Of a stretch of 64,000 nt of DNA, positions 184 to 31,459 are shown in pieces. A program made the position numbers and the translations under genes. Source of the DNA: Bacteroidaceae bacterium (GTDB lineage Bacteria; Bacteroidota; Bacteroidia; Bacteroidales; Bacteroidaceae); NCBI GenBank assembly GCA_017940565.1, contig JAGAYH010000021.1, positions 8,363 through 72,362 of the forward strand, written 5' to 3'. The stretch's first letter is position 1, and every line of letters starts with the position of its first letter. The notes under the pieces are model-generated. The model was not told where the DNA came from, made no database searches, and was given only the letters and a program-made list of their open reading frames with translations.

Positions 184-714
184 TCATGGTTCCTCTTTTT
201 TCAAGTTATTCCCTTTAATCACATCGTCCAAGCTGTCTTCCAACGCTTCGCCAACATCGGCGTTCTTCTTCTTCACCAGAGATATAATGAAGCGCAGAAT
301 ATATTTGAATACTACCTTCCAAGAAAATCGGACATGGAATTGAATGTAGGCTATGTGCTTTACCAGGCTGTCAAGTTCGCAAAAAGCACCGATGCCGAGA
401 CCTATTAGCACGCCGACTTGGCCACTTACACACCAACCGAGACGTACACCGATGGCACTGGCAAGGAAATAGCCAATTAAGGCATAGGTGAAATAATCTC
501 CGAATTTATTGGCGGTCCGCCGTATCGCCTTGCTGTCGCTGAAGTGCTTGCCATCAAGTTTCGCTTCGCGTACCCCCCACCAAAAATCGGCTATCATCAA
601 CACACCCAATGCAGCCAATACAAGCCGCAAATCAAAAACATATTGTCCGAGCTCCGCCGTCCACAAAGCCGGCGCAACATATCTTGCATTTGTCATCTCT
701 ACGTTGTTTAGCAT
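184..714 (-). CDS. holin-like membrane protein
   Basis: 176 aa with several hydrophobic helices (LVLAALGVLMIADFWWG, YALIGYFLASAIG, VLIGLGIGAF). The segment ADFWWGVREAKLDGKHFSDSKAIRRTANKF resembles the holin 4_1-type motif. It lies directly upstream of the lysin fragment. Confidence 0.5.
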   Translation of the reverse strand: MLNNVEMTNARYVAPALWTAELGQYVFDLRLVLAALGVLMIADFWWGVREAKLDGKHFSDSKAIRRTANKFGDYFTYALIGYFLASAIGVRLGWCVSGQVGVLIGLGIGAFCELDSLVKHIAYIQFHVRFSWKVVFKYILRFIISLVKKKNADVGEALEDSLDDVIKGNNLKKEEP

Positions 715-4896: not shown

Positions 4897-6645
4897 TTAG
4901 GCGGCCAACAGTTCGTCAGTCACACCGAGTGAGGTGTCAAACTCCGGACGGCCCACACGGGCGTGGGCGTTCGGGAACTGAAGCGTCCAGGCACTGTACT
5001 CGGTCATTACTACGGCGTCAGAATTGCGGACGAACAGGTTACGAAGGTCATATTCCTTGCGGTCCCAGTCACCGAATACCCACTTCTCCAGATAGCGCGG
5101 GTCAAGGCAGAAGCCCATACCGTCCATCTTCATGTAGTTGAAGGCGTCATGACGGTAGATAAGTATCTTCGTGCCCATGCTCGAGAAGCTCTCGAAATCG
5201 AGATTCCAGTTGCGGTAGTTCGACTCGCTCTGAAGGATAATGCGGTGGTCCGTATTGATATTGGCAAGAGCCTGATATATCAGATTGTCCACAAAGAATA
5301 TCTTCGTGCGGCTGCCATTACCGGCGTCCTGAATGACAGCGTTCACGAAACGCGTCAGTTCTTTCTGGTCGATAACATATTCATATACGGTCTTAGTTAC
5401 CATCTTGGCAGTTGGTGTAGTGCCGGTGTCGGGAGTAACGGAAGTACCGTCGGAAGCAGCCTTCCAAGCCGTGCCGTCCTTGTAAACAACAACGGTGGCA
5501 GCCGTGCCGTCTGTGGTAACAGTGGCATTATATAACAGATGACCGCTATCGTCGGCGTCCTGAACGGAGGTGGTTACGGGAACTTTGTCACCATTGGCGT
5601 CAGATGTCATCTTCTTCTCCCAATGACCGATTTCAAGGTCCTTACCGGCCTCCCAATAGATACCGCCGGTGGTGTAAATCTCACCGCTCTCGCTCCAGCT
5701 GATGCGACCCTTGATGCCGAACAGACCGCTGCGCTCGATACCGCCGCGCATGTCGTCAACGGCAATACGCTCCTGCTTGATGAAGTCCCAGTCAACGACG
5801 GTCTTCAACATCTGCTCAATCTTACTCTGCTCGACCTGCATGATGTAGCGCTGGCAGTATTGCTCGCTCGGGGCGGGCATCGTGTAGTAACTGCCGGTCT
5901 TCACGTCACGCTCACCGGCGGCACGGCCCAGACGAAGCATCACAGCACCTTCGGGAATGACTGGTAGGTCGTAATTGTTACCGGCGCTGGCATTGAGCTT
6001 ACCGTTAATGGCAATTACAATAGGAGCACCAGCGGCAGTGCGGCCAACCACGCGGACCATCAGAGGATGATACGGGTCTTCAGTTGTACCGTCGGCCTTG
6101 TAACCTTTAACTTTTGGGAAAAGGATAGTGTCCATATTGTCAAAGCACTTGGGATTGACAGGAGCAATCTCATTACCCAAACCATTGTTTGTGCCGGTAA
6201 CGGCAGTCTGCAATGTGGTGTAAACCGGACGCTGGCCAACTCGGTAGTATTTGATAATCATACTGTCGGCATGATTGCTACGGTTAGCACTGCGCAGGAT
6301 TTGGTCAATAGGACAACTCTCCAACTTCATCTCGCAGATACGCTTGTTAATCTGCTTCTGATAATAGTCAAAGTCTTTGTTCGTTTCCTCGGCAATCTTG
6401 CGGCTATCTTCATGCCACTGACCACCGCGGTCATCAGGACCACTGGCAACAACACCGCCTCCGGGAATTTCGTCCACACGATTCTCCAGGGTCGGATTGT
6501 CCGGGTCGTTTGCAAGCGGAGCCGTTGCTGCTGCAGCATAAGCACCGCCACCACTCAGGATCATGGCAACCATTGCTGCCACAAATCCCAACCAATTCTT
6601 AAACTTCTTCATACAATTCTCGTTTTTTGTTATTACTGTTTTCAA
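4897..6645 (-). CDS. putative major capsid protein with an N-terminal signal/TM-like segment
   Basis: 582 aa. It lies immediately after the scaffold-like gene and before a strong terminator. The central segment QYCQRYIMQVEQSKIEQMLKTVVDWDFIKQERIAVDDMRGGIERSGLFGIKG looks like an HK97-fold capsid signature region. The N-terminus reads KKFKNWLGFVAAMVAMILSGGGAYAAAATAP. The call is positional and motif-level only. Confidence 0.5.
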   Translation of the reverse strand: MKTVITKNENCMKKFKNWLGFVAAMVAMILSGGGAYAAAATAPLANDPDNPTLENRVDEIPGGGVVASGPDDRGGQWHEDSRKIAEETNKDFDYYQKQINKRICEMKLESCPIDQILRSANRSNHADSMIIKYYRVGQRPVYTTLQTAVTGTNNGLGNEIAPVNPKCFDNMDTILFPKVKGYKADGTTEDPYHPLMVRVVGRTAAGAPIVIAINGKLNASAGNNYDLPVIPEGAVMLRLGRAAGERDVKTGSYYTMPAPSEQYCQRYIMQVEQSKIEQMLKTVVDWDFIKQERIAVDDMRGGIERSGLFGIKGRISWSESGEIYTTGGIYWEAGKDLEIGHWEKKMTSDANGDKVPVTTSVQDADDSGHLLYNATVTTDGTAATVVVYKDGTAWKAASDGTSVTPDTGTTPTAKMVTKTVYEYVIDQKELTRFVNAVIQDAGNGSRTKIFFVDNLIYQALANINTDHRIILQSESNYRNWNLDFESFSSMGTKILIYRHDAFNYMKMDGMGFCLDPRYLEKWVFGDWDRKEYDLRNLFVRNSDAVVMTEYSAWTLQFPNAHARVGRPEFDTSLGVTDELLAA

Positions 6646-6663: not shown

Positions 6664-7431
6664 TTAGTAAACGCTTCCCATCCGCTCCAGATTGGTCAGA
6701 TACGGGTCTTCATCGCGCTCTTCAGGCTGGCCGCCGCCATTGCCCAAAACAGGCACGCGCTCGCTGCGGGTGCGGCGATGCGCCGTCATGTCTATCTTCT
6801 CATTACGGCCACGCACATAGCCTTTATCCTCGGCCTCGGCCATGCGCTGGTCATAATCCTTCAACTTAAACAGACGCAGGAAGTCGTCTTTGGTCAACTC
6901 AAAACGGGCGGCTCGACGCAACAGGCCGGTCTCGCTGTTGTATATCCAATCCACCAGGTCTTTGATTTCACCGAGCTTGTAACCGGCTTCCTTGGCGGCT
7001 GCCTCCAGTTCACTGTCCTCGGCGGCAACTAAAGCATCGGCCTCGGCACTCATCTGCTCGGAGGCTTCTTTGGCCTGACGACGCGCTTCACGGCCGGCTT
7101 CATAACGGGCCATGTTCACTTCATTACCCTCAATGAGGTCTTCTACAATCTCGGGAGCTTCTTCCAACAGATAGGCGCCCAGGTCAAAGGCACTGCCATC
7201 GGCGTTCTTGCCCGTCGATAAACCGGCCAATAATACGGCGTTCTCAGGGTATTCCGCCATACGCTGATTGAAGGCGTCTCGCTCGGCGTTACGAGCGTCA
7301 AGGGCATCGTAATCGTCGGCTATCTGACCGGACAGTGCTTCGTCATCATCCATATTGAGGTCGGGATAACGGCTGTGCAGACGCTCACGGAGGGCATCGC
7401 GACGCGATAGTTTTTTCTCTTCTTCTGCCAT
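6664..7431 (-). CDS. putative scaffolding protein
   Basis: 255 aa, very acidic and helical (runs rich in E, D and A). It sits directly upstream of the capsid candidate. Confidence 0.4.
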   Translation of the reverse strand: MAEEEKKLSRRDALRERLHSRYPDLNMDDDEALSGQIADDYDALDARNAERDAFNQRMAEYPENAVLLAGLSTGKNADGSAFDLGAYLLEEAPEIVEDLIEGNEVNMARYEAGREARRQAKEASEQMSAEADALVAAEDSELEAAAKEAGYKLGEIKDLVDWIYNSETGLLRRAARFELTKDDFLRLFKLKDYDQRMAEAEDKGYVRGRNEKIDMTAHRRTRSERVPVLGNGGGQPEERDEDPYLTNLERMGSVY

Positions 7432-7458: not shown

Positions 7459-7466
7459 CAAAATTA
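7459..7466 (-). promoter_or_regulatory. -7 box TAATTTTG for the scaffold/capsid operon
   Basis: Exact match to the Bacteroidota TAnnTTTG consensus, 27 nt upstream of the ATG at 7431. ATTGTA lies exactly 32 nt further upstream (7499-7504). Confidence 0.5.
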
Positions 7467-7511: not shown

Positions 7512-7519
7512 TACTTTTG
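7512..7519 (+). promoter_or_regulatory. -7 box TACTTTTG for the plus-strand packaging block
   Basis: Exact TAnnTTTG match 25 nt upstream of the ATG at 7545. Confidence 0.5.
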
Positions 7520-7544: not shown

Positions 7545-7994
7545 ATGCGACACAAAAACGCCATCTCACAAATCAACCGCGAACGCAAACAAGAATTGCA
7601 CAGCCTGTTCCGACAAGCTCTGGCGATAGCACAAGATAGGGCGTCCATCTTCGCTACTGTGGACACCGTTTGCCATATCTGTGCCGACCTGCCGGCATCA
7701 CGTTTCTTTATCTCAGATTATTGGGCGGGGCGCTACATCAAACTCCGGCTCGCTGGAAAACAAAAACACTTCCGAAATCCCCGCAAGGACAAACTCTATA
7801 AAGCACTGTTCGACCAGTTTCAGAAAGTGGCCGCAGAGGACAAATATAGAAACCGCTCTTTCGATTCACTCGTCGATATCGCACTGCGGCAACCCGCTCC
7901 CTGCATAGGGCTGTCACCTACCTATCTCAAACTCGTCTTCCGCCAAGAACTCAACATCTACCAGTATAACGTCAACAAAGATAAACCCTGTTAA
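7545..7994 (+). CDS. hypothetical phage protein
   Basis: 149-aa basic protein, first gene of the plus-strand block that ends with TerL. No motif recognised. Confidence 0.5.
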   Translation: MRHKNAISQINRERKQELHSLFRQALAIAQDRASIFATVDTVCHICADLPASRFFISDYWAGRYIKLRLAGKQKHFRNPRKDKLYKALFDQFQKVAAEDKYRNRSFDSLVDIALRQPAPCIGLSPTYLKLVFRQELNIYQYNVNKDKPC

Positions 7995-8016
7995 ACCCAT
8001 CATCCCCTATCACACA

Positions 8017-8499
8017 ATGCCCCTCTACCCGACAATGATTGCTGCCCTGATTATGCTGTGCCTGCTGCCACTTGCGCCGCTCATGGCTACAGCAGCAGCG
8101 GCACCTCTTTACACACACTTCACTTATATGCTCGCCCATGCCAATCTATGGCACTGGGCTATCAACGCATGGGGACTCTTGCTTCTTAACCCTCTTTTTA
8201 CTTTACCACGGGTGACGGCCGCTTATCTCATCTCCGCCGGCATCTCGTTCATCCCAATAAATGAAGGACGCCCGCTCCTCGGCGCATCTGTCGTCGTGTG
8301 CTTCTTCATCGGCTTGACGCTACCGGCACTCCACCGCCGTAAACCGCTCATAGCGGCGCAGACGGTTATCCTTATTATAATAGGATGTCTCATACCTGGC
8401 ATTGCCGCTCTCCATCATATCGTCATGCTCCTCGCCGGTATTATATACCGACCTTTAGAGAGAATCACACGCGATGCCTTAAACTTCATTTCCCACTAA
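8017..8499 (+). CDS. rhomboid-family intramembrane serine protease homologue
   Basis: 160 aa with six hydrophobic segments. FTYMLAHANLWHWAIN aligns with the E. coli GlpG TM2 motif FTHALMHFSLMHILFN, conserving H, H and N. LLGASVVV corresponds to the GxSG catalytic-Ser motif in TM4. ALHHIVMLLAG corresponds to the AHxxGxxxG catalytic-His motif in TM6. Confidence 0.6.
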   Translation: MPLYPTMIAALIMLCLLPLAPLMATAAAAPLYTHFTYMLAHANLWHWAINAWGLLLLNPLFTLPRVTAAYLISAGISFIPINEGRPLLGASVVVCFFIGLTLPALHRRKPLIAAQTVILIIIGCLIPGIAALHHIVMLLAGIIYRPLERITRDALNFISH

Positions 8500-8510
8500 C
8501 ACTACCTTCC

Positions 8511-10634
8511 ATGAACACCGACGAGCTTGAAATTATCCTCGCTGAAAATCAGAAACGACTGGACGTCCTGCAACGCAAATACAATCCAGTTACAGGACAA
8601 GACGCTCCCGGTATGCGCTTCGAGACGTTTATTGCTGATTTCCTCGGAGGAGAAAAATTGTTCTTGCCGGTGGAGATGCTCATGGAACCGTTCATCGTGG
8701 CTCTCCTCAACTGCGGGTCGTTTCAACAGTACATCCATAGATTCCTGCCTAAGGACGGCGACTACAACACACAACGTGAAGCGGTCCTGCGCAATTTCAT
8801 ACGCCTACGCTGCAAATACGATTTCTATTTCTTTGCATACGCCTACGCACGCATCAAGAACAAGGACGGCGGACCGGATATTCCTTTCTACCTCCGACCG
8901 GCGCAAGTCAAACTGGTGAAGGTGTTTGAACGCTTGCGTAAAAAAGACCTGGCTATTCTCGTCATCCTGCTGAAGTGCCGGCAGTGGGGCGGCTCAACCG
9001 CGACGGATATCTATATGGGATGGATTCAACTGTTCTGGAAAACCAACTGGAACAGCAACATCGTCGGCCACATGTCCACCTCGGCGGCCAACGTCTTCGC
9101 CATGTACGAAAAACTGATTGACAACATTCCAATCTGGTTGTTCTACGACCTTGGAGAAGAATATCCCACCGACATCAAGAAGTTTGCCGGCGTCGGCACA
9201 ACACAGAACATCAAGGAGATGGTACCGCGTCACTGCAAGATTCAGACGGGGTCGGCACGCAACCCGGAGTCCACGCGCTCGGCTGACGCGGCAATGGTAC
9301 ATCTCACCGAAGAGGCGTTTTTCCCTTCGACAACACAGTGGACACCGCAACAAGTAGTCAATGCTGCCATCTCCTCTGTCAACGTGGAAACACCACTGAC
9401 GTTCATCGTCCGCGAATCAACGCCGAACGGAAAGAATGAATTTTATGACGAATGGCAAAAGACCAAACAGCAGGACGACGAAACGGGCGAACCGCTGTCG
9501 GCTTACACCGCCGTCTTCGTGGCCTGGTTTGAAATCGAGAAGTATCTGTCGCCAATGACGGAGGAGGAACGGGCAAACTTTGCTATCGAACTCTACCGCC
9601 GACGTAACGACACAAAAAACCATGGGGACTATTTCTGGTGGCTTTGGAAGAAGGGAGCAACACTCGAGGGCATAAAGTGGTACAAAAATAAGCTCAAATC
9701 CATGTCGTCGCTGGAGAACATGCAGCAAGAATATCCTTCCGACGACATCGAGGCATTCCGCTTCGGCGGAAACATCGTATTCGACGCCTACCAACTTGAA
9801 GAACTGGTCAAGGACTGCGCTATTCCGGAGTTTATCGGTGACATCGAGGGCGATTCTGTGCTGCCGGAAAACAAAACCTGCATGAACAATATACGCCTCG
9901 TAGCTAAAGCGGGCGGTCCTCTCTCTATCTGGGAATACCCCGATACTTCAGAAAAAGTCAACAACCGCTACCTCGTGGCGGTGGATATCGGAGGCGCACG
10001 ACAAACGTCCGACTACCACGATATTGTCGTCATTGACCGGTACGACCTCATGTTCGGAGGCGTGCCTGCCATTGTCGCAGAATGGCACGGGCACGCACCG
10101 GCTGACCAACTGGCCATGCGCTGCGCACAAATTGCGGCGTTCTATAACAACGCTTTCCTCGCCGTCGAAAATAATACGGCTTACTCAAAAATGAACAAAA
10201 CGGAAGGCGAAATATCCGAACTCTTCTTTCCTATCCTTGTTGAACTGTACACCAATCTCTATAGCGGCAACCAATCTAAAACACTGAAACGCCGCCAAAA
10301 AGAAACGAAATGGGGCTTCCATACGGGCAGAAACAATAAACCGGCCATTATCCAAAATTATCAGCATATACTGAGGGAACACGGTTACATCGAAAGGGAA
10401 GTGGAAGCTACCATCGAGATGTCCTACTATATCTTCTATCCGGAAAAGGGAGAATACGGCGGGGCTCCCGGCTACCACGACGATCGCGTCATGGCACGGG
10501 CCATTGGTCTCTGGATTTCTACCTTCGACATGGACGCACCGTCTATCGTAACACAGAAGTCACCGGAACAACTGAGACAAGAGGAAGTCAGCAAACTCTC
10601 CTCGTCAACATCACCCGTCATCGGCAATCTATAA
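8511..10634 (+). CDS. terL: terminase large subunit
   Basis: CRQWGGST is a Walker-A-like motif, followed by VHLTEEAFF and RESTPNGKNEFY (the STPxGxNxFY coupling motif). The nuclease half has VAVDIGG...SDYHDIVVIDR and GYHDDRVMARAI. The start was moved from 8385 to the ATG at 8511, just after the stop of the upstream gene. Confidence 0.85.
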   Translation: MNTDELEIILAENQKRLDVLQRKYNPVTGQDAPGMRFETFIADFLGGEKLFLPVEMLMEPFIVALLNCGSFQQYIHRFLPKDGDYNTQREAVLRNFIRLRCKYDFYFFAYAYARIKNKDGGPDIPFYLRPAQVKLVKVFERLRKKDLAILVILLKCRQWGGSTATDIYMGWIQLFWKTNWNSNIVGHMSTSAANVFAMYEKLIDNIPIWLFYDLGEEYPTDIKKFAGVGTTQNIKEMVPRHCKIQTGSARNPESTRSADAAMVHLTEEAFFPSTTQWTPQQVVNAAISSVNVETPLTFIVRESTPNGKNEFYDEWQKTKQQDDETGEPLSAYTAVFVAWFEIEKYLSPMTEEERANFAIELYRRRNDTKNHGDYFWWLWKKGATLEGIKWYKNKLKSMSSLENMQQEYPSDDIEAFRFGGNIVFDAYQLEELVKDCAIPEFIGDIEGDSVLPENKTCMNNIRLVAKAGGPLSIWEYPDTSEKVNNRYLVAVDIGGARQTSDYHDIVVIDRYDLMFGGVPAIVAEWHGHAPADQLAMRCAQIAAFYNNAFLAVENNTAYSKMNKTEGEISELFFPILVELYTNLYSGNQSKTLKRRQKETKWGFHTGRNNKPAIIQNYQHILREHGYIEREVEATIEMSYYIFYPEKGEYGGAPGYHDDRVMARAIGLWISTFDMDAPSIVTQKSPEQLRQEEVSKLSSSTSPVIGNL

Positions 10635-11143: not shown

Positions 11144-11171
11144 GAAGGTGGCCGAACATCCGACCACCTTC
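11144..11171. terminator. hairpin between convergent genes (possible bidirectional terminator)
   Basis: GAAGGTGG (11144-11151) pairs with CCACCTTC (11164-11171) around a 12-nt loop. It lies between the plus-strand block and the portal gene. The T-tracts are weak. Confidence 0.4.
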
Positions 11172-11197: not shown

Positions 11198-13267
11198 CTA
11201 CACCTGCGCCCCAACAACGCCTTTGGTGTCTCCGGGCGACATCGGCGTCACAACCGCTGGTTCACTCCCATTACCTCCGTTAGAACCGGGCGACGGCTGA
11301 CTTCCGTTGGCGGCGTTCTGACCACTGGCTGCGACACCGGCCTGAGCCTCGGCCATGCGCTGCTGCAACTCCAAATAGGCTTTCTTCAGACGGGCGGTGT
11401 TCGTCCAAGCGCCACAGTCAAGCATCGTTATCAAATCGATTTTGTTCTGCAACATCAGCTGCCACAACATGTCGTTATTGGCTTCGCGCATGACGGCACT
11501 GTTGACATCCATTTCCAAGGACACCTCTACGCCGATATCTGACATCGTGTCACGATTGAAATAACGTCGCACATCTTCACCGGTCAACTGCACACTACGA
11601 TGGCTGTCATAAAATTCCTGTATCAGCCACAGCTGCTTCATGGCTATCTGCTTACGGAAACTGTAGAACACACCGAAGTAGTCGGCCACCGTGGTACTGG
11701 CACTCTGCTTCTCTATCTGATATTGACGGCCGCTGGTACTGCGGTGGACGCCTTGCAACGCTCCCTGAACACCGCTCTGCGTGACGACAAGACCTTGATT
11801 CTGCTGTATCATCCACTCCAGACCGCTGGGCACTTGACCTGTTGCCAGGGGCTTCGGCGCATCGCCGCCTTTGCGGCTGTCGTAAATCACAACACCATTG
11901 GGCTTCGTGCTCTGATAGACCATCTCTTCTATCGTCTGATACTCGCTCAACGAAGCCGCATCATAAGCCATGCCTTTCAACGAGTGACCTAAGATGGAGT
12001 CTAACATCAACATGTAATGGTTGGTGGCGTTCTGCTTGTCCTCGGTGCGGTCAATGAAGCTCCGCGTTTCCTTGCCCGGGTAGGCTCGGAATACATACGG
12101 ATGGATATAGAAACCGTAGCCGTTACGCATCACACGATAAGGCGATACGCCTTCTTTCAGAAGATAACCGTTGGGACTCAAAAAACGGTAATACCAGAAC
12201 TGCTCGATACGTTCCTGGTAATCGATTAGCTGCACCTCCCCCGGAGCTATATAGTATTGCTGCTGACCGGCGGCATCAAGCACGGGCACACCGGCTTCGT
12301 CTTTGATAATGTTGTCGGCTAAACGGCGGGCGTTCTCGGCATCTATCAGAGGTTTGTCGCTCAACGGACGGAAACCGGGCTCACCCGTGGCACGGTCGTG
12401 GCACCACAGCGCACGGTTGCGTTCCAATTTCCATATCTCAATGACACGGTACTTGCCGACAACCGTACTGTGATAGAAGTCGTCACTGTCACGCGAGGCA
12501 TCCATGCCAGTGTCGTGGTGAGACTGCTCGTGGTCGCTCTGGCGGGCGTAGATGTCTTTCAACGCTTCCTCGGCACGGCGGCTGGCGTTGCCGTCCTCGT
12601 CATAACAGAATGATTCCAACAGGTCGGGCCAACTCATATCATGCGCCTCGGCAATGAAACGGATATCGCTCAGGTTACTCTTCTCCCAGGCGGGAACGGC
12701 CAGCTTGTAGATGTCGGGCATGTCCACATACACATCCTCATGGCCGTCTCTATAGGTATAGCTGACCTTGGCACACAGAAACGCGTACTTACAGAAGTTC
12801 TCAAACAATTCGGCACTCTGCTCCGCCATGTCGTTCAACTGGTCGTTCTTGCGTAGAAACTCGCTGAACAGCGCAACATACATGTCCTCGTTGGCATCCG
12901 TGGCCTTGCACGTCGGAGCCATGTCTTCCTGACGCAAAAGACCTTTCAGCGTCATGACCTTGTCACTGATAATGTCGTTCTGGAACTCGGGCAGACCGCG
13001 CAACTTCAAAACATCGGCCACACGCATCTCACGACCCTGCCAAGTCACTTTGTCGTTCAGTTGACGACCCATGAAGAAGTCATTGGCACGCGTCCACTTC
13101 TTGCGAAGTGAAGACATCTGATCATAGTAATGTGCCGCTTCACGCAACAGCCGGCGATAGTAACCGTCATTGCTGAACACCACATGTTCCTGGTACTGCA
13201 AGGAGTCCATGCCCTCCTCATAAGCTCCGGCGACACTGTTCTCTAATCCGTTGTTCTCGTATATCAT
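11198..13267 (-). CDS. putative portal protein
   Basis: 689 aa, a typical portal size, lying between TerL and the giant internal-protein gene. It has a low-complexity Gly/Ser/Ala/Gln C-terminal tail. The call is positional. Confidence 0.5.
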   Translation of the reverse strand: MIYENNGLENSVAGAYEEGMDSLQYQEHVVFSNDGYYRRLLREAAHYYDQMSSLRKKWTRANDFFMGRQLNDKVTWQGREMRVADVLKLRGLPEFQNDIISDKVMTLKGLLRQEDMAPTCKATDANEDMYVALFSEFLRKNDQLNDMAEQSAELFENFCKYAFLCAKVSYTYRDGHEDVYVDMPDIYKLAVPAWEKSNLSDIRFIAEAHDMSWPDLLESFCYDEDGNASRRAEEALKDIYARQSDHEQSHHDTGMDASRDSDDFYHSTVVGKYRVIEIWKLERNRALWCHDRATGEPGFRPLSDKPLIDAENARRLADNIIKDEAGVPVLDAAGQQQYYIAPGEVQLIDYQERIEQFWYYRFLSPNGYLLKEGVSPYRVMRNGYGFYIHPYVFRAYPGKETRSFIDRTEDKQNATNHYMLMLDSILGHSLKGMAYDAASLSEYQTIEEMVYQSTKPNGVVIYDSRKGGDAPKPLATGQVPSGLEWMIQQNQGLVVTQSGVQGALQGVHRSTSGRQYQIEKQSASTTVADYFGVFYSFRKQIAMKQLWLIQEFYDSHRSVQLTGEDVRRYFNRDTMSDIGVEVSLEMDVNSAVMREANNDMLWQLMLQNKIDLITMLDCGAWTNTARLKKAYLELQQRMAEAQAGVAASGQNAANGSQPSPGSNGGNGSEPAVVTPMSPGDTKGVVGAQV

Positions 13268-13490: not shown

Positions 13491-16400
13491 TTACTGCCCA
13501 GTCAGCCCAATCTCCAACGAATCTATCCGTGCCATCGTCTCCTGACGCATCTTCCGAATCTGCGCCATCGTCTCAGCGTCGTCATTACCGATTGTACCAA
13601 GTTTCTTCTTTAACGCTTTTATCCCGACAACACCATACTCTTTACTACCATTGTTCATTCGGTTAATGAGTCCTCTCGCAACCAGCCAATCACGATTGGC
13701 TTCATTCCACGCCGCCTTTTCTTTACCGCTCAGCGTAGGGTCTGTAGCAACTTCTTCCTGCTTAACATAAACCTCTGTAGTTTTCTTATATAGTTTACTG
13801 ATTCGATAATCATCACGCACGTCATCAAAGGTGCTGTACATAAGATAGCGCTCGTTGTCCTCCGCGGTCTGACGCACATCCTCGCCCTTGATGAAGGCCT
13901 CGGCTTGTTTGCGGGCTTCGGCCAGTGTAAACGCTTTATATTCACTTTCGGCAAGATATTTTATAATTTTGTTTTTAGCCGTAGCTTTATCTTTTGCCAA
14001 CCGGGCATTGTCAAACGCCTCTTTAGCTGACGCCAAATCAACTACACCGTCAGAAAACGCTTCACGTTCTTTTTTGGTAAACGAACTTTTTACGCTCTTC
14101 AAAACATCTTCGGCGTCAATACCGTTCAGAACACAGGCTTTATAGGCTTTTTCTACCGCATCCATATCGCCTCTCTCAATAGCGGCGGTAAAGTCACGCT
14201 TGGCCTTCCAAATACTATATCCCTTGGAGCTTGGCATAGCCAAATCCAAGAAATGAAAATCTTGCTTCGCCTCTGTAGAGTTTGATATAAACAGACCTGA
14301 CACGTCAACCGCAGAATAAGGCATGAAACGGTTGACGGTAAGATAAGCAAGAGCCATCCAAGCACCGTGACGTTTCTTTATCTCCTGCGCAGTGCGGTCG
14401 TTGCCGTTAAAACCTCTAACACCAAGAGAACCTAAAAAGTCAATACTAAAATTCGTACCTGCAGAACCTTTAGTTAAGGCACGGTTAAGCAGCGGACGTG
14501 GGAATCCCCAGCCTTCAGCATCCTCAAACAGTTCCGGAAACTCTCTGAACTGCTTACCCCAGCGCAGATAGCGCTCACGACCATCAGAATAGCGGCCAAG
14601 AAACAACAATGATTGTTTGCCAGGTGCATTACCTAACATGGTGTAGTCATACCATTTCATGCCGTTCGGATAGGCCAATTCATACGGCGACTTATAGTCG
14701 GGATTCGTTTTACGTTCTTCTTCGGCTTTCTTCTTTTCTTTATCTTCATCTATCATGCGCTCTATTATGTTAGCCGCGTTCATTGCCAATAGTATCATCA
14801 AAACGCCTATTGCATAACATTTAACCGCTGTCATGGAGCGCAAACGCTTAAACTCGTCGGTTTTGAAGAATCCCTCAGAGTATAATGTGCCTATACCAAA
14901 GTTGGCCAAGAAATGGCGCATTGTAGAGAAAGTCCAGTCTGGGCTCAATATGCCACGACGAAGCCACTTCAAGGTTTTAGGGCTGATGCCTAATAATTCC
15001 CAATACTGACCACCGAACGTGTCATTGACAAGCTGACCATACTCGTCCAACATACGGTCGCGCATCTGGTCTCTTGTTAAGCCGTTTACCGTGGCATTAT
15101 CTGTCTTGTACAACTTGTCCAGACGTTTATCCGTTTGTTCGACAAAACGATTGAAAAGACTCAACTTCAAACCGTCATGCAACTGACGCCACAACAAATC
15201 ATCCCATTCCTTACCGACAGCACCCAACATCTTTCGTAGGGCGTCAACGCTGGTTATAACCTTATTCGGATGTTTCTGCGAATAGACGTACAGAGCACGG
15301 CTTATTTTATTGCTAATGGCTGTAGTGTCGGCGGCAGCAAAGTCCGAAGTGGCACCTAACTGCACCAAATGTCTGGCGGCCAACTTGAAATCTTCGGGAT
15401 GAGCAAATGCTGGAGATTCACCACGCAACAATGGGTCTACTACATATTTCATAAAGCCCTTGTTGGCAGAAGCCTTCACGCCAGCGCGGTAGGTATCAAA
15501 AAAGATATATTTGAACAAGGCCTTTGCAAGCCCAAATGGACCTCTCTGTGCCAACATGACTTCATTCAACGCCAAGTGATGAAATAATGAAACTGACAAA
15601 TTCATTCGCTTGGCAAATCGGTTAATAATATCATATATACGGCCAATTTCATGAGCCACATCTCCCACATCACTGCGTAAAACGCCAAAGGCAGCCCGGA
15701 AATACGGCACCGCAGCCCGATGAACATAAACCGTACCAAGCCCAGGGATTCTATAGCCTGGGTTGTGATAATACTCTTCATCAATGGGGCGAACATGGGT
15801 TGTGATAATAGGTATACGAGCCACTACCTCACCAGAGCTGTTCTTCTCTACAACCGTAACGGACGACATATCTTCCAACATAGCCTTGTTAGCCAAGGCT
15901 TCGTTGTTTTGGCGGCTATAATGAGCCATAATATCAAGCAACGATTTATATTTTGGCACCAATCCGAGAGCCTCACCATTCAAATAAGTATCTACACTGC
16001 GGAGGTGCATATTAGGGCTTTGCGTGCGCTGCCGGTTCTCCGGTAAAGGACCTTTCAAATATGCAGACAGTTTCTTTGGTGTGGATAGTGCCTCCAGAAC
16101 TTGTGGGTCACTCTTACCGGCATCCCACACATGATTGATGTACCCTTCGGCAATATAACCGGCATCACGGCGAAGGCCTGCAGCATCCAACATATGATAC
16201 ATGCGGTCGTACCATTCTTTGATGTCCGACAACAGCTGTTTCACCTCGGCACTGTCCATCAACGCACGCATCGCGGGAGACATATCGGGCAATGTCCGGG
16301 CGGTAATCAGGTCATAAACAGCCAATACGTCTCCGGACGTGATATACCCTCTGTCACTATTATTGCTATTGGCGCTATCGGTTCTATCCTCACCGTTCAA

Positions 16401-19400
16401 AACCTTGGCAACTTCCCTGGCGGCGTCAATCACCTCCGGCGTGGCGGCGGCCTCATCCGGATTGTAATTCAAGTCGCGCAACTTGGCAATGGCAGCCTCG
16501 GCACGCAATAGATCAGCCGGCGTGACTCGTAACCGATTTAGAGCAAAGGTAAGAGTAGCATTTAACTGTCTGGCTATGATTTGGCGGGCACGCGGAGCCT
16601 CCATCATATAAGGCAAAGTCTCCAATACTTTCTTAACCGTTATGTTGGCACCTGCTTCTCGTGCAGATTTAACCAGTGCTTTTACACGGTTCTCTATACC
16701 GTGAATAAACAAAGTGTCTTCTGCATTAGAGCCTTCTAATTGTTTACGTCTGGCGATGACCGAGAACTTCATTTCAAGGTTAGCGCGGCTTTCTTCTATA
16801 TCCAAACCGACATTTAGGCCGATTGCTTCGGCTTCCAAAATTTCGGCTTCGGCTTTCGTCATACCATCCATAGCGCCATTGACAGCAGCTTCTACATCAT
16901 ACTCATACAACTGCTGCCACGAGCGCCCGCGGTCGGCCTTATCTCGCTCTGTTCGCCACGCCCGATAGGCGTCACGCCAACGGGCTGTCAGTTCTTCATC
17001 AAAAGACTCTGGTTCTAAAGGACGGGGATGCTTATCCAAAAAGTCACGCATCTGGTTCCATCCACGCAAGCGCATGACATAAGCCATTTGCGATTCATTC
17101 TTCTTACGCTTTGGTTGGTGGCGCAGACTCGGTGCCTTTTCATAACGGATGCCATCCTCTCCGACAAAAGTACCTTCATTCGCTTCATTTTCGGAACTAT
17201 TGGAACTATCAGTGCCATTGTCACTACTTCCACCTTCCCCTGCCAACTGATAACGGGGTACACCGTCAGAAGACGAGGTTAATCGATTATTACGTTGTCC
17301 TTGAAGTATTTTACCATCTTCTTGACTACCTCTGGACGTATCTTCTTCTGTTCTTCTTGCGCCTTCTCCTCTTGCGGCTGTTTCTTCTCCTCTGTCATAA
17401 CCTAAACTATGTTCTATTGATTCAATTCTTGATTTATCACCACTGTCCTGAAGCAGGTTGGTTACCTCGTCAACAGAACCGTGAGCCATGGCGCGACCCA
17501 GCCACGTGACGAAAAACTCTTCTTTCCACTTCTCCGGCGTGTCGCGGTATTTCTTCTCAATATACGACTTGGAAACCTCACCGCCTTCGTCAGGAGCCAA
17601 ATCCCAAAATGCTTCGGCAATACGCCGCGGAGCGGGACTTGCGCCGTACCAGCTGCGCAAGATAGCGTGAATATTCTCGTGGAAGAACGTTTCCTCTTCC
17701 CTGTCTGACGGGATGCGCTCTGCAAAGATAATGATTTTGTCACTCGGCGGGAAATAAAAGGCATAACTTTTCTCAGTAAATTGCTTTATTTCCTCAACAA
17801 AAGCAATCTTTTCTTCTTGGGTTGGCATGTCGCCTTCAAATATTTCTTCCGGAATGTCCAGCAAATCAAACACCTCTAACCCGTCCATTTTGTCGTTCAG
17901 GAAAACAAGCTGCTTGGAGTTGTATTTATCGGCCATGCGTCGTATGCGCTGCTCGGCCAATTCTCCCGTCCGCGGATAAAACCCGTGTACCAGGTCGGCC
18001 ATCATCGCGTCGGCAAAGTCCTCGGCCTTCATCGTCTTCAGACGGGCGTTGTTCCCGGCGAAGAGGTCGCGGGCCATCGTCCAGAAGCGTTTCAAGGCAC
18101 GGCGCAAGCGGTAGAACATCCGGGCCACACGGGCCTTGCCCATCAGGTCGGGCTCTTCGTTCATCATACGGCGGCGTTCCTCTTCCATGCGCTCCCGTCC
18201 ACGGCGGCCGCTGAAATGCGTGAACACTTCTTCCCACAATTCGTCTCCTTCCAAGTCGGGATAACGCCCTTTCACGTAGTTCACCAGGTCGGCGTCCTGT
18301 TCCAGTTCGCCTTTCAGGTGTTCCCATGCTTCGGGATTGGCCTCGGCAAGGGCTTCCACCCACAGGTGACCGTACTCGTGTATCGGCGTCTCGGCCGTGG
18401 CAATGCGCGGGTCAAGGTAGATTTTGCCGTTAAGCGTAAAACCGTAAGCCTGTCCGTCCGGCGTGCGGAAGAACATCGGTTGCCCCTGCATGACGTCACG
18501 CTTCATCTCCGGAGTGACGTCAACGCTCCACATCTTTTGGGCGGCTTCTTCGAGTACCGGCAACGCCACTTCGCCCACTTTGGCACCCCATTTCTTGACG
18601 TACTTGTTCACGAAACTGGGCAGCATCCGGTCGTAAAAGCCCTTCATGCCTTCGCCACCGATGCGGAGATTGTCACCTTCCCAAGTTTTCATATTTTCCG
18701 TACCTTTGCCTTGTACAGACAGAGCACCTGCGGCTATTTCCTTGCCGACAATCTCACTGATATTCTTTACACCTGACAGGTATTGTTGACCTACACGGTT
18801 TGTCTCGGTAATATTACCTTCATCGTCAAAACCAATATCCATCGTTGGGCCGCCTTGCAGATGAATAAGCAAAGCGCGTTTCCCTTCCTGGTCTATTGCG
18901 GCATCAATACGCCTTACAGACTGGCCGATATTGTATCGCTCCGCCTGTTGCTCGCCCGGGGTCCATGCCACTTTGTCGTAACCGTTCTCGGCGGCATAAC
19001 GCAACATACGCTTCATGGCCAGTTCGTGCCAGTTCTTCTCAAACGGGGCATCGGGAATATCTGAAATGCCGTGATTCTGGAAGCGCTCGCTGGCAGCGTA
19101 CACTTCCTGTTCCAAACGGTCGGCTTCTGTGCGTTCGGCGTCTGTCATGTCGGCATAGATGTCTTCGTAAGCACCGTTATACTTCTCACCCATCCTGCGG
19201 GTGTAAGCATCGTAGGCTTCCTGGGCTTTATTTACGGCATCGCCCAATCTTTCTTCTTCGGCAACGGCTTCGGTTGTCCTATACCCCTTCTCCCGGCCTT
19301 CCTGATGACGTTTGCTCTGTATCTCGTCGATAACCAACACACGGACGTCTCTCTTGACCACGGTTTTTTCGCCTGTTATAGGATGGTTGATTTCTACGGG

Positions 19401-22400
19401 TTCTCTTCCCCATGAATCGCCAAACCTTATCCATGCCACGGCACGGCCGCCTCCGGCATCGCCGAAGTGGATGTCATCGTCATCGTTCCACGACTCAATG
19501 GTCGGCACGGTCAAAGCAATTTCGCGCTTATTCTCCAGCCCTTCGGTGGTGTAGGCGAGACGGGTGGTGTTTATCTTCTTGTTATCATCGCCAGCTATAT
19601 TTGAGTTATAGGCGTCTTCATCTACATCCCACTCGCCAATAGCGTAACTGATGGTTCCGTCGGAGATAGAATAACCCACCTCAAAGTCGTCACCATAGCG
19701 GTCTTTCATCTGTTCGGTCAGCCACTCGTCACGCTCGGAAGCATCCATGCCGTCAAGTTCATCGCCTGCAAGTCTGATTTCCGTATCTATCTGCTCCTGC
19801 AATTCTTCGAGACTGTGACCGCGGGCAATGTTTTCTTGAATCTCTCTCTCCGTTGCAGAGAGTATATCTACATTCTCGCTATAGTTCACCTCCTCAATCT
19901 GAATCTGGTTTTGGTCGATGAAGTCGAGCACTTCCTGCTTGGTGAGGCTCTTTTTGTCCTGACCCTTCAGCCAGTCGGACAGACCGAGCCACTTGTCCTC
20001 ACCGGCCTTCAGGCCGCCCTGCTTCTGCAACATGGCCAGCCATTGTTCCGGCGTGGCTTTCTCCTGTCTGATACCCTCCACGGCACGGCGGGCATTGCTC
20101 ACAAAGACGGCCTGAGATACGTTGGCTTTCTGATATTTCGCATTTTTTTCGTCGTTTTCTATCGCTATCTCGGCATCTCTTCGTATCTTTGCAGCGTCGA
20201 AGGACGAGATAACGGTTACTGCATTTGCTCTTGCGGCTTCTGTTCCGTTCGTAACATTTGCAGGTTTAGACGTGGTATGCAGGGGGCGTTCATTAGAACG
20301 AGCATCTGCACCTCGTGAAGACAAAGTAGCCCACATGGTTATGGTATCCATATCATCAGGGCTATTTTTTTGCTCTTTTTCAACGACAAGAACAACACCA
20401 TTTTGAAGGCGTTTTTCAAAACGTATAGATTCCCTGCCATCGCTACTTGCACTACCTGGAATCACATTATCCGGAGCGGTCATAATATACGGGGCGAGTT
20501 TGAAATCTTCATCACGAAGAGGGATGCTGTTCTGGTCAATTTTCATGCCGCCGACACCATGGTTGTTCTTACTGTGTATTATACCGTTGGCATAGATGTT
20601 ATGGGTGTCAAAATCTCTACCCATTGCACGGCGCACCTTTCTTTGTGTTGACAGAGGCAATTCTATCTCCACGCGTTGGTCATTGTGCTTACCAGAGAGA
20701 CTCTCTTCAATAAATCGCTCTGCCTCTTGCAGGGCGTTCAGTCGCTTTTGCAGGCGCACACCTTCTCCATTCGCCATGTCCAGCACGCGCTGGCCTTCCT
20801 CCCAGTCGGTGGAGGTGGGAATACCGATGGCATTGAAGTGGTCGGCCATATACGCCGTCTCCTCACGCTCTTCCTGAGTGGCAGGACGGACGTCTTCGGA
20901 ACTGGTGAGTTGGTACTGGGGTTCATTCACCGCATTATAGTCCACCTCCGGCTCACCAAGCAAACCGCTCTCGGAGGCGCTGTGACCGATGTGCATCACT
21001 TCCAGGAACGGAGCTTGCAGCTGTTTCATACGCAGTGACAACCGCGACAAGCGCTTGTCATCCTCCTTCGTGTAGTCATAGTTCCCGTATAAGATGCCGC
21101 GTACGCCACCGCACTGGTGCACGTAACCGGCCAACAATTCGCCGGCCTCCGCGTACGATTTTATCTCGCTGAGTTTCGTCCACGGCAGGAAGACGTTGGC
21201 CACCACGCGCATGTCCTGCGTAACGACCAACAGACTCATCTTCTTGTGCTCACCCAAGCGGTGACTGCTGACAAACTGCGCCACTTTCAGGCTGCTGTCG
21301 ACCTTGAACGCCTCGGCGGGGTTCCAGTCGGGAGCGAACACCTGCTTGCTGAACTGATATACCTTGATGGGTATTTCGTTACCGGTTGCTTGCGGCATCT
21401 CTTCTTCGACACTATAGGTCTCATACGACGTTTCTATACTCTCAAACTCGCCGTAGTTGCCACTGGTGGTGTCGATGATGATTCCCTGTTGCACGACATC
21501 CTCGCCGAAGGCTCGCTTGATATGGTTGAGCACTTCCTGGTCTTGGCGGGACGCTTTTAAGTTACCGCTCGGATGGTTGTGTACGAAATAGACGGTATCG
21601 GGTTTTAGCGCCTGATAGGCCACAAACGCGGTCTCGAAGGGTGCCGCCGTCTTATTGTAACTGCCCATGCCCAGATGCACTATCGTGGGACGGCCGTCCT
21701 TCAACAACACGAGGAAGGCGTTTTCTACCGAGGCGGTCTCCAGTTGCTTGAAGATAAAGGCCACGTCTTCGGCACTTTCTATCTTCTCCTTGCCGGTGAA
21801 GTTAAACTGCCCGGTCTCTTCATAGACGCGCTCCACACGGCACGTCTCACCGGGCTCCAGCTTGCGCAGGCGCAGCGTGGTCGGGTCGAAAGCCTCCACG
21901 GCGTTCTTCTGCTCTTCGTACTGCTGCTTGGCAGCTTCACGCTCGGCTTCACGCTGGGCTTCCATCTCCTCGTCGTAACGCTCGGTTTCCAAGAAGTCGA
22001 TGTACGGCGTCAGGGCATCCATCTGCGCCCGCAGGGCGGTGCGCTCGTCCGTGGCATAGCCGCCGTTCAACCAGCGGCGCGACACATCGCCATACATACC
22101 GTAGGCATCGTCCAGACTGGTATTGCTCTGCTCCAACTGCTGGGCATAGGCCAACTGGGCATCGTCGTATTCCTGCTCGTGACGGCGGTCATATTCGTCG
22201 GCGTAGAAGTCGCGGTCATTGGCACCGCTCTCACCGATACGGTCTAACAACTGCGCGTCGCTCATCCCGCCGATTTCATCCGCCAACGCCTGCCCGCTGG
22301 CACGGTTGGCACTGTTGTTGCCGTTGCCTCTCTCACTCTCGAACAAACTCTGATAAACGACTTGTTGCCCGTCCAGCGTATTGTATATTGTCTGCGGTTC

Positions 22401-30289: not shown

Positions 30290-31459
30290 TTATTTTGAAG
30301 GACCTATATTAAGTCCAGATGACCTTCTATTTTTTCCGCTGCCAACGCCCAAGCCAGACGACCTTCCCCCGCTGTTTGGCTTCGTCACCACTGTAGTCTT
30401 GGTCTCTTGCCCGGTCAACGGGTCAACCTTCGTCGTGGTTTTCGTCGTGCCCAGCGCCTTCAGTTCGTTCAAGGCGTCCTGAGCTTCGTAATGACTGATC
30501 TGACCTTTCGCCACCATATCGCGGATGCGGTTCTGCTCCCTGGCAATGTCTAAGCGACCTTCATCATATTGCTTCTTCCAGTCCAACTTGGCACTGTCCA
30601 ACGCTTGTTTGCCGGCCAACCTCTCTTCTTGCTGCTTGCGCCACTGCCACAACTGCTGACGGTCTTGCTCGCGGGCTTTGGCAATATCGGCGGCACGCTG
30701 CTCCTGAGCGCGGCGGGCATACGCCTGGAGATATTGGTTCGACAACTGCTGGCGGAACTGACGGGTGACATCGCGCAGACGTTGCTGACGCTGTGACAAC
30801 GCTGGGCCACTCTCCAACGGGGCGGAAGGCGCACCTTGCGTCGTGCCATAGAAGTTACCCAAGTGGCTCAACAGGTTCGTCAACTGCTCCCAACGCTCAC
30901 GACGGCGCTGACGCTTCTCTTCTTTCTGCTGCTCCGTTGACGACAAGCGCGGGTCGCCGGCCTGCAACACCTGCATCATCGACACATAGTCTGGCGTTCT
31001 TCCCTGCGACTGCTCATAATTGGCATAGTCCGACAACAACTGGTGCACGGGCACATCCGCACGGCGCATACTCTCGTCCATCGCGCCGTCTTCACCACGT
31101 CGTCCGTAAACGACATCGCCCAAGGAATAATGGCCCCAGTCGGCCAAGTACGGATTCGGCGTGTCACCGCTGGTCCCGGGAGCCTGCTCCCACGTCATAC
31201 CGGCACGCTTCGCCTCGGCACGCGCCATGTCGCTCGGCCAAGATACTGCAGGGCCAACCGGAGCAACAGCCTCATTAGGCTCAACCGCTACGTTTGCCTC
31301 AGGCTGCACGGCCGACGGGGCAGGCGAAAGCATGTCTGCACCATTGGCTCCGCCTTCACTATAGTTACTGTTGTCCCCAAGCCCTCGCACCGCGTTCAAG
31401 GCGGCTTCAACGGCGGACCGCGGATTATATCTGTTCTGAAATGTTCCCATGGCTACCAA
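30290..31459 (-). CDS. hypothetical phage protein, Gln/Arg-rich coiled coil
   Basis: 389-aa ORF immediately upstream of the giant gene. It has a long Q/R/E-rich helical region and a basic Gly/Ser tail. It overlaps the upstream gene by 7 nt. Confidence 0.55.
   Translation of the reverse strand: MVAMGTFQNRYNPRSAVEAALNAVRGLGDNSNYSEGGANGADMLSPAPSAVQPEANVAVEPNEAVAPVGPAVSWPSDMARAEAKRAGMTWEQAPGTSGDTPNPYLADWGHYSLGDVVYGRRGEDGAMDESMRRADVPVHQLLSDYANYEQSQGRTPDYVSMMQVLQAGDPRLSSTEQQKEEKRQRRRERWEQLTNLLSHLGNFYGTTQGAPSAPLESGPALSQRQQRLRDVTRQFRQQLSNQYLQAYARRAQEQRAADIAKAREQDRQQLWQWRKQQEERLAGKQALDSAKLDWKKQYDEGRLDIAREQNRIRDMVAKGQISHYEAQDALNELKALGTTKTTTKVDPLTGQETKTTVVTKPNSGGRSSGLGVGSGKNRRSSGLNIGPSK

Follow-up and report, generated by a model that had tools for sequence, protein, structure and literature searches.

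Identification of a rhomboid gene beside terL

The window analysed here, a 64,000-nucleotide (nt) stretch of contig JAGAYH010000021.1 from the Bacteroidaceae bacterium assembly GCA_017940565.1 (forward strand, positions 8,363 to 72,362), contains a phage morphogenesis region in which a small gene immediately upstream of terL, the gene of the large terminase subunit, encodes a 160-aa membrane protein. An earlier note on this DNA had proposed that this protein is a rhomboid protease homologue with six hydrophobic segments. The open reading frame (ORF) was found exactly as described, and the homology of its product to rhomboid intramembrane serine proteases (PF01694 / MEROPS S54) was confirmed. 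The gene and the motifs assigned to its product are the following:

8017..8499, + strand: predicted gene of a minimal rhomboid-family intramembrane serine protease (160 aa, ATG start, six transmembrane (TM) helices, N-in/C-in)
8137..8166, + strand: TM2 motif H41-x4-H46-x3-N50, corresponding in the profile alignment to H145/H150/N154 of GlpG, oxyanion-hole region
8281..8289, + strand: serine motif G89-A-S91 at the N-terminus of TM4, corresponding to G199-L-S201 of GlpG; the helix begins at residue 91 in the model
8416..8439, + strand: H134 to G141 in TM6, corresponding to H254 and G261 of the GlpG motif AHxxGxxxG (AHIAGLAVG in GlpG)

Family assignment and predicted structure

Searched alone, the 160-aa protein matched the Pfam Rhomboid profile with 18.4 bits (E = 0.0026), below the gathering threshold of 22.6 bits, and the match was nearly full-length, covering residues 31–144 and profile positions 4–136 of 143. 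A word-indexed search with the same protein found three relatives only. Searches of the PDB with the single sequence or with a four-sequence profile did not retrieve GlpG and gave only chance matches to ribosomal protein uS19, and the AlphaFold model obtained from the four-sequence alignment was poor, with a predicted local distance difference test score (pLDDT) of 56.6. The weakness of both the PDB search and the model was overcome because these small inputs were replaced by an alignment of 130 sequences. An exhaustive HMMER search revealed 478 cluster representatives at E ≤ 1e-3; among the 150 listed, nearly all are 130–200 aa long, and the family alignment was made of 130 of them, the most distant sharing about 20% of residues with the query. 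PF01694 was matched by 104 of the 130 members (best E = 5.4e-33) and is also precomputed for most relatives of the gene, so that the Pfam match suggested as a check in the earlier note falls below the threshold for the single sequence but holds at the level of the family. The 130-sequence profile matched the GlpG crystal structures across the whole core with E = 8.3e-13, and the iRhoms far more weakly (E of about 4e-5).

The AlphaFold (AF2) model based on the deep alignment had a pLDDT of 96.2 and a predicted template modelling score of 0.90. It comprises six TM helices (residues 4–23, 44–56, 63–76, 91–108, 110–124, and 131–159), as expected from the six hydrophobic segments, and a short helix in the first loop (L1). 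Comparison of this model with the PDB using Foldseek gave 36 best matches that were rhomboids without exception, GlpG being aligned with template modelling scores (TM-scores) of 0.63–0.71; iRhom1 followed, and derlin came far behind.

PHROGs contains no family for the 160-aa protein, and no head-protease family was matched there; neither tblastn of the protein against isolated phages nor megablast of the region gave a match. No specific NCBIfam equivalog applied to the family. The commonest specific NCBIfam match was rhombosortase (TIGR03902), obtained for 30 of the 130 members with a best E of 5.2e-10, none of which came near the 84-bit equivalog cutoff; the query scored 13.3 bits, and membership was rejected. 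Inside the rhomboid superfamily, the phage proteins form a subfamily of their own that is specific to phages and marked by very small size and a shortened L1 loop.

Catalytic residues, topology, and selection

In the 130-sequence alignment the only invariant columns are H46, N50, G89, S91, and H134, and the only further columns conserved in at least 90% of sequences are H41, G99, and G141. In the 90 distinct copies taken from the first 170 related loci fetched, H41, H46, N50, G89, S91, G99, H134, and G141 are all invariant. The six landmark residues named in the earlier note are conserved far more strongly than chance would allow. The profile alignment agrees with the earlier mapping of H41/H46/N50, G89/S91, and H134 to the landmarks of GlpG, and additionally pairs G99 with GlpG G209. 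The claim that the Ser–His dyad is retained in a minimal core is borne out by the invariance of S91 and H134 in both sets of sequences.

Several departures from GlpG were detected around these residues. The residue following S91 is Val rather than Gly (GASV versus GLSG), and the first Gly of the AHxxGxxxG motif (GlpG G257) is replaced by Met137, while the second is kept. The distance from the end of TM1 to H41 is 17 residues compared to about 30 in GlpG, L1 being about 13 residues shorter. The WR motif of L1 is not retained, since GlpG W136-R137 are aligned with Y32-T33, and this loss speaks against a fully canonical enzyme. However, the WR motif is common and not universal in rhomboids, and its loss therefore marks a variant rather than an exclusion from the family.

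The distribution of positively charged residues is strongly asymmetric: over the 90 distinct sequences, the mean number of Lys and Arg was 8.3 in the N-terminus, L2, L4, and C-terminus and 0.24 in L1, L3, and L5. The orientation is therefore N-in/C-in, as in GlpG, which places S91 at the start of TM4 and H134 at the start of TM6 on the same periplasmic face, as the proposed topology demanded. The phage protein thus resembles GlpG of E. coli and H. influenzae in its six-TM core, the TM2 HxxxxHxxxN, the TM4 GxS, the TM6 His and Gly, the N-in/C-in orientation, and the periplasmic-face active site. It differs in the absence of a cytoplasmic N-terminal domain, in having about 27 fewer core residues, in an identity of only 17–21%, and in being encoded in a putative phage late operon.

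The median ratio of nonsynonymous to synonymous substitution rates (dN/dS) was 0.127 (150 pairs), a sign of purifying selection. This value and the invariance of the catalytic residues therefore argue for an active protease and not a pseudoprotease, and the protein is likely an active Ser91–His134 enzyme, as predicted from the sequences. A pseudoprotease of the iRhom/derlin type was considered and rejected, as the catalytic Ser91 and His134 are invariant and the dyad has not been lost. A wider version of this alternative, in which the product would be a rhomboid-like protein without catalytic function (a pseudoprotease, or a factor in membrane thinning or dislocation) or the gene a passenger in decay, could draw on the sub-threshold Pfam score of the query, the shortened L1, and the lost WR motif. 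Set against these, the catalytic and oxyanion residues are all invariant, dN/dS is as low as 0.13, and the gene is universally retained, while iRhoms and derlins, unlike this protein, have lost the dyad. We regard this alternative as extremely improbable.

Gene order and distribution in related phages

The gene lies in a short operon that faces, on its downstream side, the convergent portal gene:

7459..7466, − strand: back-to-back copy of the −7 promoter motif, facing the operon of the scaffold and major capsid protein genes; divergent intergenic region
7512..7519, + strand: copy TACTTTTG of the Bacteroidetes-type −7 promoter motif, lying 26 nt ahead of the 149-aa gene
7545..7994, + strand: gene of a 149-aa protein, ending 22 nt before the rhomboid gene (PHROG 27246, unknown function)
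8511..10634, + strand: terL, matching PHROG terminase families; its ATG is 11 nt past the rhomboid stop codon
10670..11140, + strand: gene of a 156-aa protein that ends the operon (PHROG 22658, unknown function), syntenic in relatives
11144..11171, − strand: terminator-like hairpin with a 12-bp stem between the convergent 156-aa and portal genes
11198..13267, − strand: portal gene, assigned by PHROG

The rhomboid gene therefore sits between a small gene of unknown function (7545–7994) and terL (from 8511), as the earlier note had stated. The mechanically predicted terL ORF starts at 8385 and overlaps the rhomboid gene through an upstream in-frame start, the real ATG being at 8511. The 149-aa gene is kept upstream of the rhomboid gene in relatives; its product gave no Pfam or PDB signal, and from position alone it is a candidate small terminase. 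The TAnnTTTG motif occurs in the window 53 times compared to 27.6 expected copies, or about twice as often, and is absent from the + strand between 7545 and 10634. The copy at 7512..7519 likely starts a transcription unit composed of the 149-aa gene, the rhomboid gene, terL, and the 156-aa gene, its function as a promoter being suggested by motif and position.

Of the 170 related loci fetched first, 169 have the rhomboid gene directly upstream of terL, and the contig carrying the remaining one ends at terL. A rhomboid-selected set of 85 loci, consisting of 80 of the 128 IMG/VR contigs encoding relatives, two ENA contigs, and three isolates, displayed the order 149-aa gene, rhomboid gene, and terL in every case. 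The same was found when loci were selected by TerL: among IMG/VR loci with TerL 45–68% identical, the rhomboid gene was directly upstream in 78 of 79, with the remaining contig again ending at terL. Over the relatives as a whole TerL is 37–68% identical and its gene always lies directly downstream of the rhomboid gene; rhomboids just 25–27% identical to the query occupy the same module. The conservation beside terL suggested as a check thus proved universal rather than sporadic (85/85 and 78/79 loci). In several relatives the rhomboid gene overlaps terL by 4–32 nt, which suggests translational coupling.

By TerL, the closest isolated phages (37–39% identity) are three temperate phages of Bacteroides: BF1-TP2, BS-TP4, and BKO1-TP3. 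Their module comprises the major capsid protein (MCP) gene (−), a scaffold-like gene (−), a gene of about 145 aa (+), the rhomboid gene (+), terL (+), the portal gene, and the gene of a giant protein of more than 5,000 aa; the rhomboids (BF1-TP2 gp59, BS-TP4 gp8, and the BKO1-TP3 counterpart) are orthologous to the query. The linkage to terL in relatives, the promoter motif, and the hairpin together therefore point to a core late gene and not a moron. On this genomic evidence a large clade of temperate phages of the Bacteroidales has the rhomboid as a core gene, with late expression predicted.

The most divergent sub-clade has an additional gene of 80 aa (6387–6629 in the loci concerned) between the upstream gene, of about 141 aa, and the rhomboid gene, which it overlaps. 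No IMG/VR relatives were found for the divergent members P0061 and P0078. Another rhomboid subtype (P0138, 192 aa, 8001–8579 of its locus) was found in the accessory region of an unrelated large-phage-like contig, where the neighbouring genes encode an RNA ligase, SIR2, NADAR, GmrSD_C, and a glycosyltransferase. The gp93 protein of Stenotrophomonas phages DLP3 and DLP5 has likewise been listed, as a 'rhomboid membrane protein', among accessory genes. Unlike the clade studied here, neither P0138 nor gp93 is encoded beside terL, and these two cases therefore indicate that rhomboids entered phages more than once.

Proposed role of the rhomboid

One could hypothesise that the rhomboid, whose gene would share a transcript with terL and often be coupled to it in translation, acts late in the lytic cycle on a morphogenesis protein encoded by the phage, in which it would cut a membrane helix rich in Gly, Ala, and Ser; its Ser91–His134 dyad would open to the inner membrane of the host on the periplasmic side. 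The MCP would be the leading candidate, and the protease would then release or trim a capsid precursor targeted to the membrane, in a module devoid of a conventional prohead protease; an alternative target would be the Gly-zipper helix at the N-terminus of a 181-aa protein. Overall, a terL-linked core late rhomboid that cuts a helix of a phage morphogenesis protein, with activity, timing, and substrate all predicted, appears to be the best explanation, which we hold tentatively and at slightly less than an even chance. That the substrate is some phage-encoded protein has an even chance or a little better.

Two other explanations of its role were weighed. In one of them the active protease would be directed at a host inner-membrane protein, such as a single-pass envelope, divisome, Tol/TonB, Sec/Tat, or defence component, whose cleavage late in infection would aid takeover, envelope disruption, or the exclusion of other phages. 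The identity and topology of the enzyme, established by conservation, profile, model, and charges, suit such a role, and the known bacterial rhomboids act on cellular membrane proteins, including TatA, MgtE, and orphan respiratory subunits. The rhomboid also diverges faster (37–48% identity) than TerL (56–66%), as expected if it were tracking varying hosts, and the unrelated phages mentioned above (P0138 and DLP3/DLP5 gp93) carry rhomboids as accessory genes. However, the gene is universal and keeps a fixed place in the packaging operon even where TerL identity falls to 37%, which is unusual, since host-interaction genes are normally variable, and no specific host protein can be named. A host target is in our opinion somewhat unlikely, and the same holds for the takeover, disruption, or exclusion functions that would follow from it.

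The second explanation is that the rhomboid is a lysis timing or accessory factor, which processes a holin, an antiholin, or a membrane-tethered endolysin, or serves as an ActH-like partner of a phage peptidoglycan hydrolase. Judging by the promoter motif and the hairpin, the rhomboid resembles a late membrane protein, and the same arm encodes a holin-like protein with three TM segments; no spanin was recognised in the window:

184..714, − strand: protein of 176 aa, class-I holin-like by hydropathy and sequence; it has three hydrophobic segments, and its C-terminal tail is highly charged

A precedent is S. aureus ActH, a rhomboid-domain membrane protein tied to cell-wall hydrolysis that partners and activates the amidase LytH (PMC9245657). 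No amidase partner gene adjoins the phage rhomboid. ActH additionally has extra TPR domains. Moreover, the gene is located in the packaging operon in every relative and not in a lysis cassette, the annotated endolysin of BF1-TP2 is encoded about 14 kb away from the rhomboid gene, and the holin assignment has no family support, as neither Pfam nor an annotated PHROG matched the 176-aa protein. The invariant catalytic residues also favour proteolysis over a purely structural partner role. A function in lysis therefore seems quite improbable.

The N-terminus of the major capsid protein as a candidate substrate

Returning to a phage-encoded morphogenesis protein as the target, the helix at the N-terminus of the MCP is the first candidate. 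The relevant features lie on the opposite strand, on the other side of the divergent promoter region:

4897..6612, − strand: candidate MCP of the SU10/DUF5309 type with an HK97 fold, starting at the methionine of MKKFKNW (PHROG 26635)
6526..6612, − strand: MCP residues 1–29, MKKFKNWLGFVAAMVAMILSGGGAYAAAA, with a basic n-region, a hydrophobic core, and a Gly/Ser/Ala stretch with A-x-A; candidate substrate 1
6664..7431, − strand: acidic 255-aa scaffold-like protein between the MCP gene and the divergent promoter region (PHROG 22323, unknown function)

For the 582-aa ORF at 4897–6645 (−), a profile built with its relatives matched the solved phage MCP 9in6 with E = 3.4e-6, and the relatives carry PF17236 (SU10_MCP). 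The 255-aa gene is syntenic in all relatives, and from position and composition we infer that its product is the scaffold. The MCP N-terminus has the same design in all 165 loci with an MCP match, including sub-clades whose MCPs are about 30% identical: a basic n-region (e.g., MKKFKKW), 12–14 hydrophobic residues, and a Gly/Ser/Ala stretch with A-x-A followed by Glu/Asp. The helix is followed by an acidic linker of 29–48 aa with 45% Gly and Pro, and then by the conserved capsid core (helix and linker together correspond to 6402–6612 (−)); no second hydrophobic segment is present in the linker. Two further observations speak for the MCP as the target. The MCP and rhomboid operons diverge from one intergenic promoter region. 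Pfam, PHROG, and profile searches of the morphogenesis module revealed no protease family and no conventional prohead protease, in line with what the earlier note had remarked about this module.

The prohead proteases of tailed phages (HK97 gp4, T4 gp21, and ClpP-like types) share some features with the system described here. They too are encoded in the head-morphogenesis and packaging module, and the MCP studied here has an N-terminal extension of about 70 residues outside the capsid fold. The differences are that the phage enzyme has an unrelated fold, that of a rhomboid, and another catalytic environment and is membrane-embedded, while those proteases are soluble and packaged in the prohead, and that its gene lies between the 149-aa gene and terL and not between the portal and scaffold/MCP genes; a role in MCP processing is hypothetical.

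Besides the loss of the WR motif described above, a number of observations weigh against the best explanation, most of them against cleavage of the MCP by the rhomboid. The MCP helix, with an n-region of +3/+4, a core of 12–14 residues, and A-x-A followed by an acidic residue, has the design of a Sec signal peptide, from which an N-in/C-out orientation and cleavage by the host signal peptidase I are predicted. Classical rhomboid substrates are oriented N-out/C-in, opposite to this prediction, and P2' at the MCP site is not hydrophobic, unlike in the published rhomboid recognition motif. Since the linker has no second hydrophobic segment, a helix spanning the membrane would put the capsid domain outside the cytoplasm. 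The helix and the rhomboid co-occur throughout the clade and therefore represent one evolutionary event only. A scan of TerL against GTDB genomes for an outgroup found nothing, tblastn of the MCP reached only the three in-clade isolates, and the relative that follows by TerL, at 28% identity, is uninformative here, as its module is another one and lacks a rhomboid. The separate scaffold-like protein means that a maturation protease is not strictly required, and the rhomboid gene is not adjacent to either candidate substrate gene as would be the case for a dedicated protease–substrate pair.

These features give rise to another explanation, in which the MCP segment is an ordinary Sec signal or membrane-targeting device cut by the host signal peptidase I, and the rhomboid either clears the remnants or is unrelated to it. 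The n-h-c layout with A-x-A and Glu/Asp in all sub-clades fits such a device, and, as each virion contains hundreds of MCP copies, the membrane would presumably be left with many hydrophobic peptides. Nevertheless, capsid export is hard to square with cytoplasmic assembly and DNA packaging, and bacteria already possess signal-peptide peptidases, so that we consider this scheme highly unlikely.

With all of this taken into account, the MCP N-terminal helix is a possible but doubtful substrate. The fuller proposal that the rhomboid is an MCP-processing enzyme, in which a precursor would be membrane-targeted by the signal-like helix, with the Gly/Pro-rich linker as a spacer, and freed by intramembrane cleavage at a time set by co-expression with the terminase, must be rated as unlikely. 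If true, it would represent a membrane-tethered step in the capsid assembly of a tailed phage and the first rhomboid acting as a virion-maturation protease. Regardless of whether the rhomboid acts on it, a signal-peptide-like N-terminus is odd for a protein that assembles in the cytoplasm.

The Gly-zipper protein as a candidate substrate

The second candidate is encoded at the far end of the phage arm:

31453..31998, − strand: 181-aa Gly-zipper protein; residues 1–23, MGLIGGLVGAGASLLGGALAAKK (31930–31998), are candidate substrate 2

Its uncharged Gly-zipper N-terminus and the basic cluster behind it are also conserved in gp57 of BKO1-TP3 and in the relatives that 31 IMG/VR contigs encode. The helix is predicted to be N-out/C-in, the canonical orientation of rhomboid substrates, as in TatA. 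The Providencia stuartii rhomboid AarA trims the short periplasmic N-terminus of TatA, and the Gly-zipper protein shares with TatA an N-out/C-in Gly/Ala-rich helix with basic residues after it. However, the Gly-zipper protein is not a TatA homologue and its cleavage is hypothetical; AarA also has a seventh TM helix. A Gly-zipper substrate appears distinctly unlikely.

A different kind of Gly-rich signal is used by the rhombosortases, which, like the phage proteins, are small stand-alone six-TM rhomboids. The sorting signals of their substrates are C-terminal GlyGly-CTERM segments, whereas the candidate signals considered here are N-terminal, and no combination of GlyGly, a TM segment, and a basic tail was found at the C-termini of the phage-arm proteins in the window.

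Existing annotations and significance

The earlier note knew of no rhomboids described as phage morphogenesis or lysis components. This holds for the literature searched, in which no functional treatment of any phage rhomboid was found, but not for the databases, since labels in GenBank, UniProt/BFVD, and IMG already assign relatives to the rhomboids; the rhomboid call itself is therefore not new. In the GenBank notes of the three isolates, the gene that precedes terL is given structural matches to rhomboids, under inconsistent product names, namely 'rhomboid family intramembrane serine protease', 'rhomboid domain-containing protein', and, in BKO1-TP3, 'glycoside hydrolase'. Within the 90% cluster of the query itself, one member is named 'membrane associated rhomboid family serine protease' (IMG) and another 'hypothetical protein' (NCBI). 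BFVD/UniProt contains 'GlpG-like protein' entries from uncultured podoviruses, e.g., Podoviridae sp. ctzXp5; the BFVD entry A0A8S5TE03 gave a structural match with a TM-score of 0.75. Giant-virus rhomboids are likewise auto-annotated. All of these are labels or table entries without functional analysis.

The TerL of the three isolates (GenBank PQ571263, PQ571277, and PQ571269) is named 'tail spike protein' despite a terminase structural match in the accompanying note. Both this name and the 'glycoside hydrolase' of BKO1-TP3 are probable annotation errors.

The paper describing the three isolates makes no mention of the rhomboid gene, and reports that 31% of the surveyed gut viromes from China contained BS-TP4 (PMC12694917). 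We believe that two aspects have not been described before: that the rhomboid is a core gene coupled to terL and universal in an abundant clade of gut phages, and its co-conservation with a signal-peptide-like helix of the capsid protein. The proposal of a phage rhomboid was supported on the three counts on which the earlier note had considered it vulnerable, as a profile match to rhomboids was obtained at the family level, the predicted topology places Ser91 and His134 on the same membrane face, and the gene is not sporadic among relatives.

The natural substrates and roles of prokaryotic rhomboids are known in a handful of cases. As a universal core gene in genomes of about 60–68 kb (the three isolates), the phage rhomboid narrows the search for a substrate to a few dozen proteins, two of which bear conserved rhomboid-style helices, and BF1-TP2, BS-TP4, and BKO1-TP3 can be cultured on Bacteroides, which provides a tractable route to a natural rhomboid substrate. 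A capsid target would mean that phage heads can be assembled by a membrane-linked route so far unrecognised, and a host target would mean a new takeover mechanism; either way, a compact natural rhomboid of about 160 aa becomes available for structural and mechanistic work. The family merits a consistent label in place of the present 'hypothetical', 'glycoside hydrolase', or 'rhomboid'.

Prophage setting and other genes of the window

From about 33.3 kb to 64 kb the window consists of bacterial chromosome, with genes for Omp85, a GlgB-like protein, a MORN protein, KdsB, PBP1A, PheS, the alanyl-tRNA synthetase AlaRS, CorA, cardiolipin synthase, and a TonB-dependent receptor, as well as tRNA-Gly/Leu/Leu/Gly and tRNA-Gln genes. 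The presence of these housekeeping genes past about 33.3 kb therefore indicates an integrated prophage, the structural arm of which is contained in the window. AlaRS is at most 75% identical to sequences from Prevotella and Prevotellamassilia metagenome-assembled genomes, and judging from such comparisons the host belongs to the Bacteroidales and is Prevotellaceae-like.

The largest phage gene is a giant ORF at 13491–30266 (−) encoding 5,591 aa, with one hydrophobic segment near residue 5,150. Its relatives (3,000–5,800 aa) carry ddrB-ParB, InPase, AAA_34, Helicase_C_4, RadC, MuF_C, and LPD38 domains, and one is annotated as 'DarB-like antirestriction'; the product is probably a giant polyvalent protein that is injected. 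Past the giant ORF, at 30290–31998 (−), lie the genes of a 389-aa low-complexity coiled-coil-like protein and of the 181-aa Gly-zipper protein, in positions matching BKO1-TP3 gp56/gp57 (339–1950). Neither has a Pfam or PHROG family, and both may be internal or ejection proteins. At the boundary between prophage and host, a gene at 32955–33395 (+) encodes a 146-aa lipoprotein with the LPAM_1 lipobox MKKILLALLAAAALPGC, which could belong either to the phage, possibly as an exclusion lipoprotein, or to the host.

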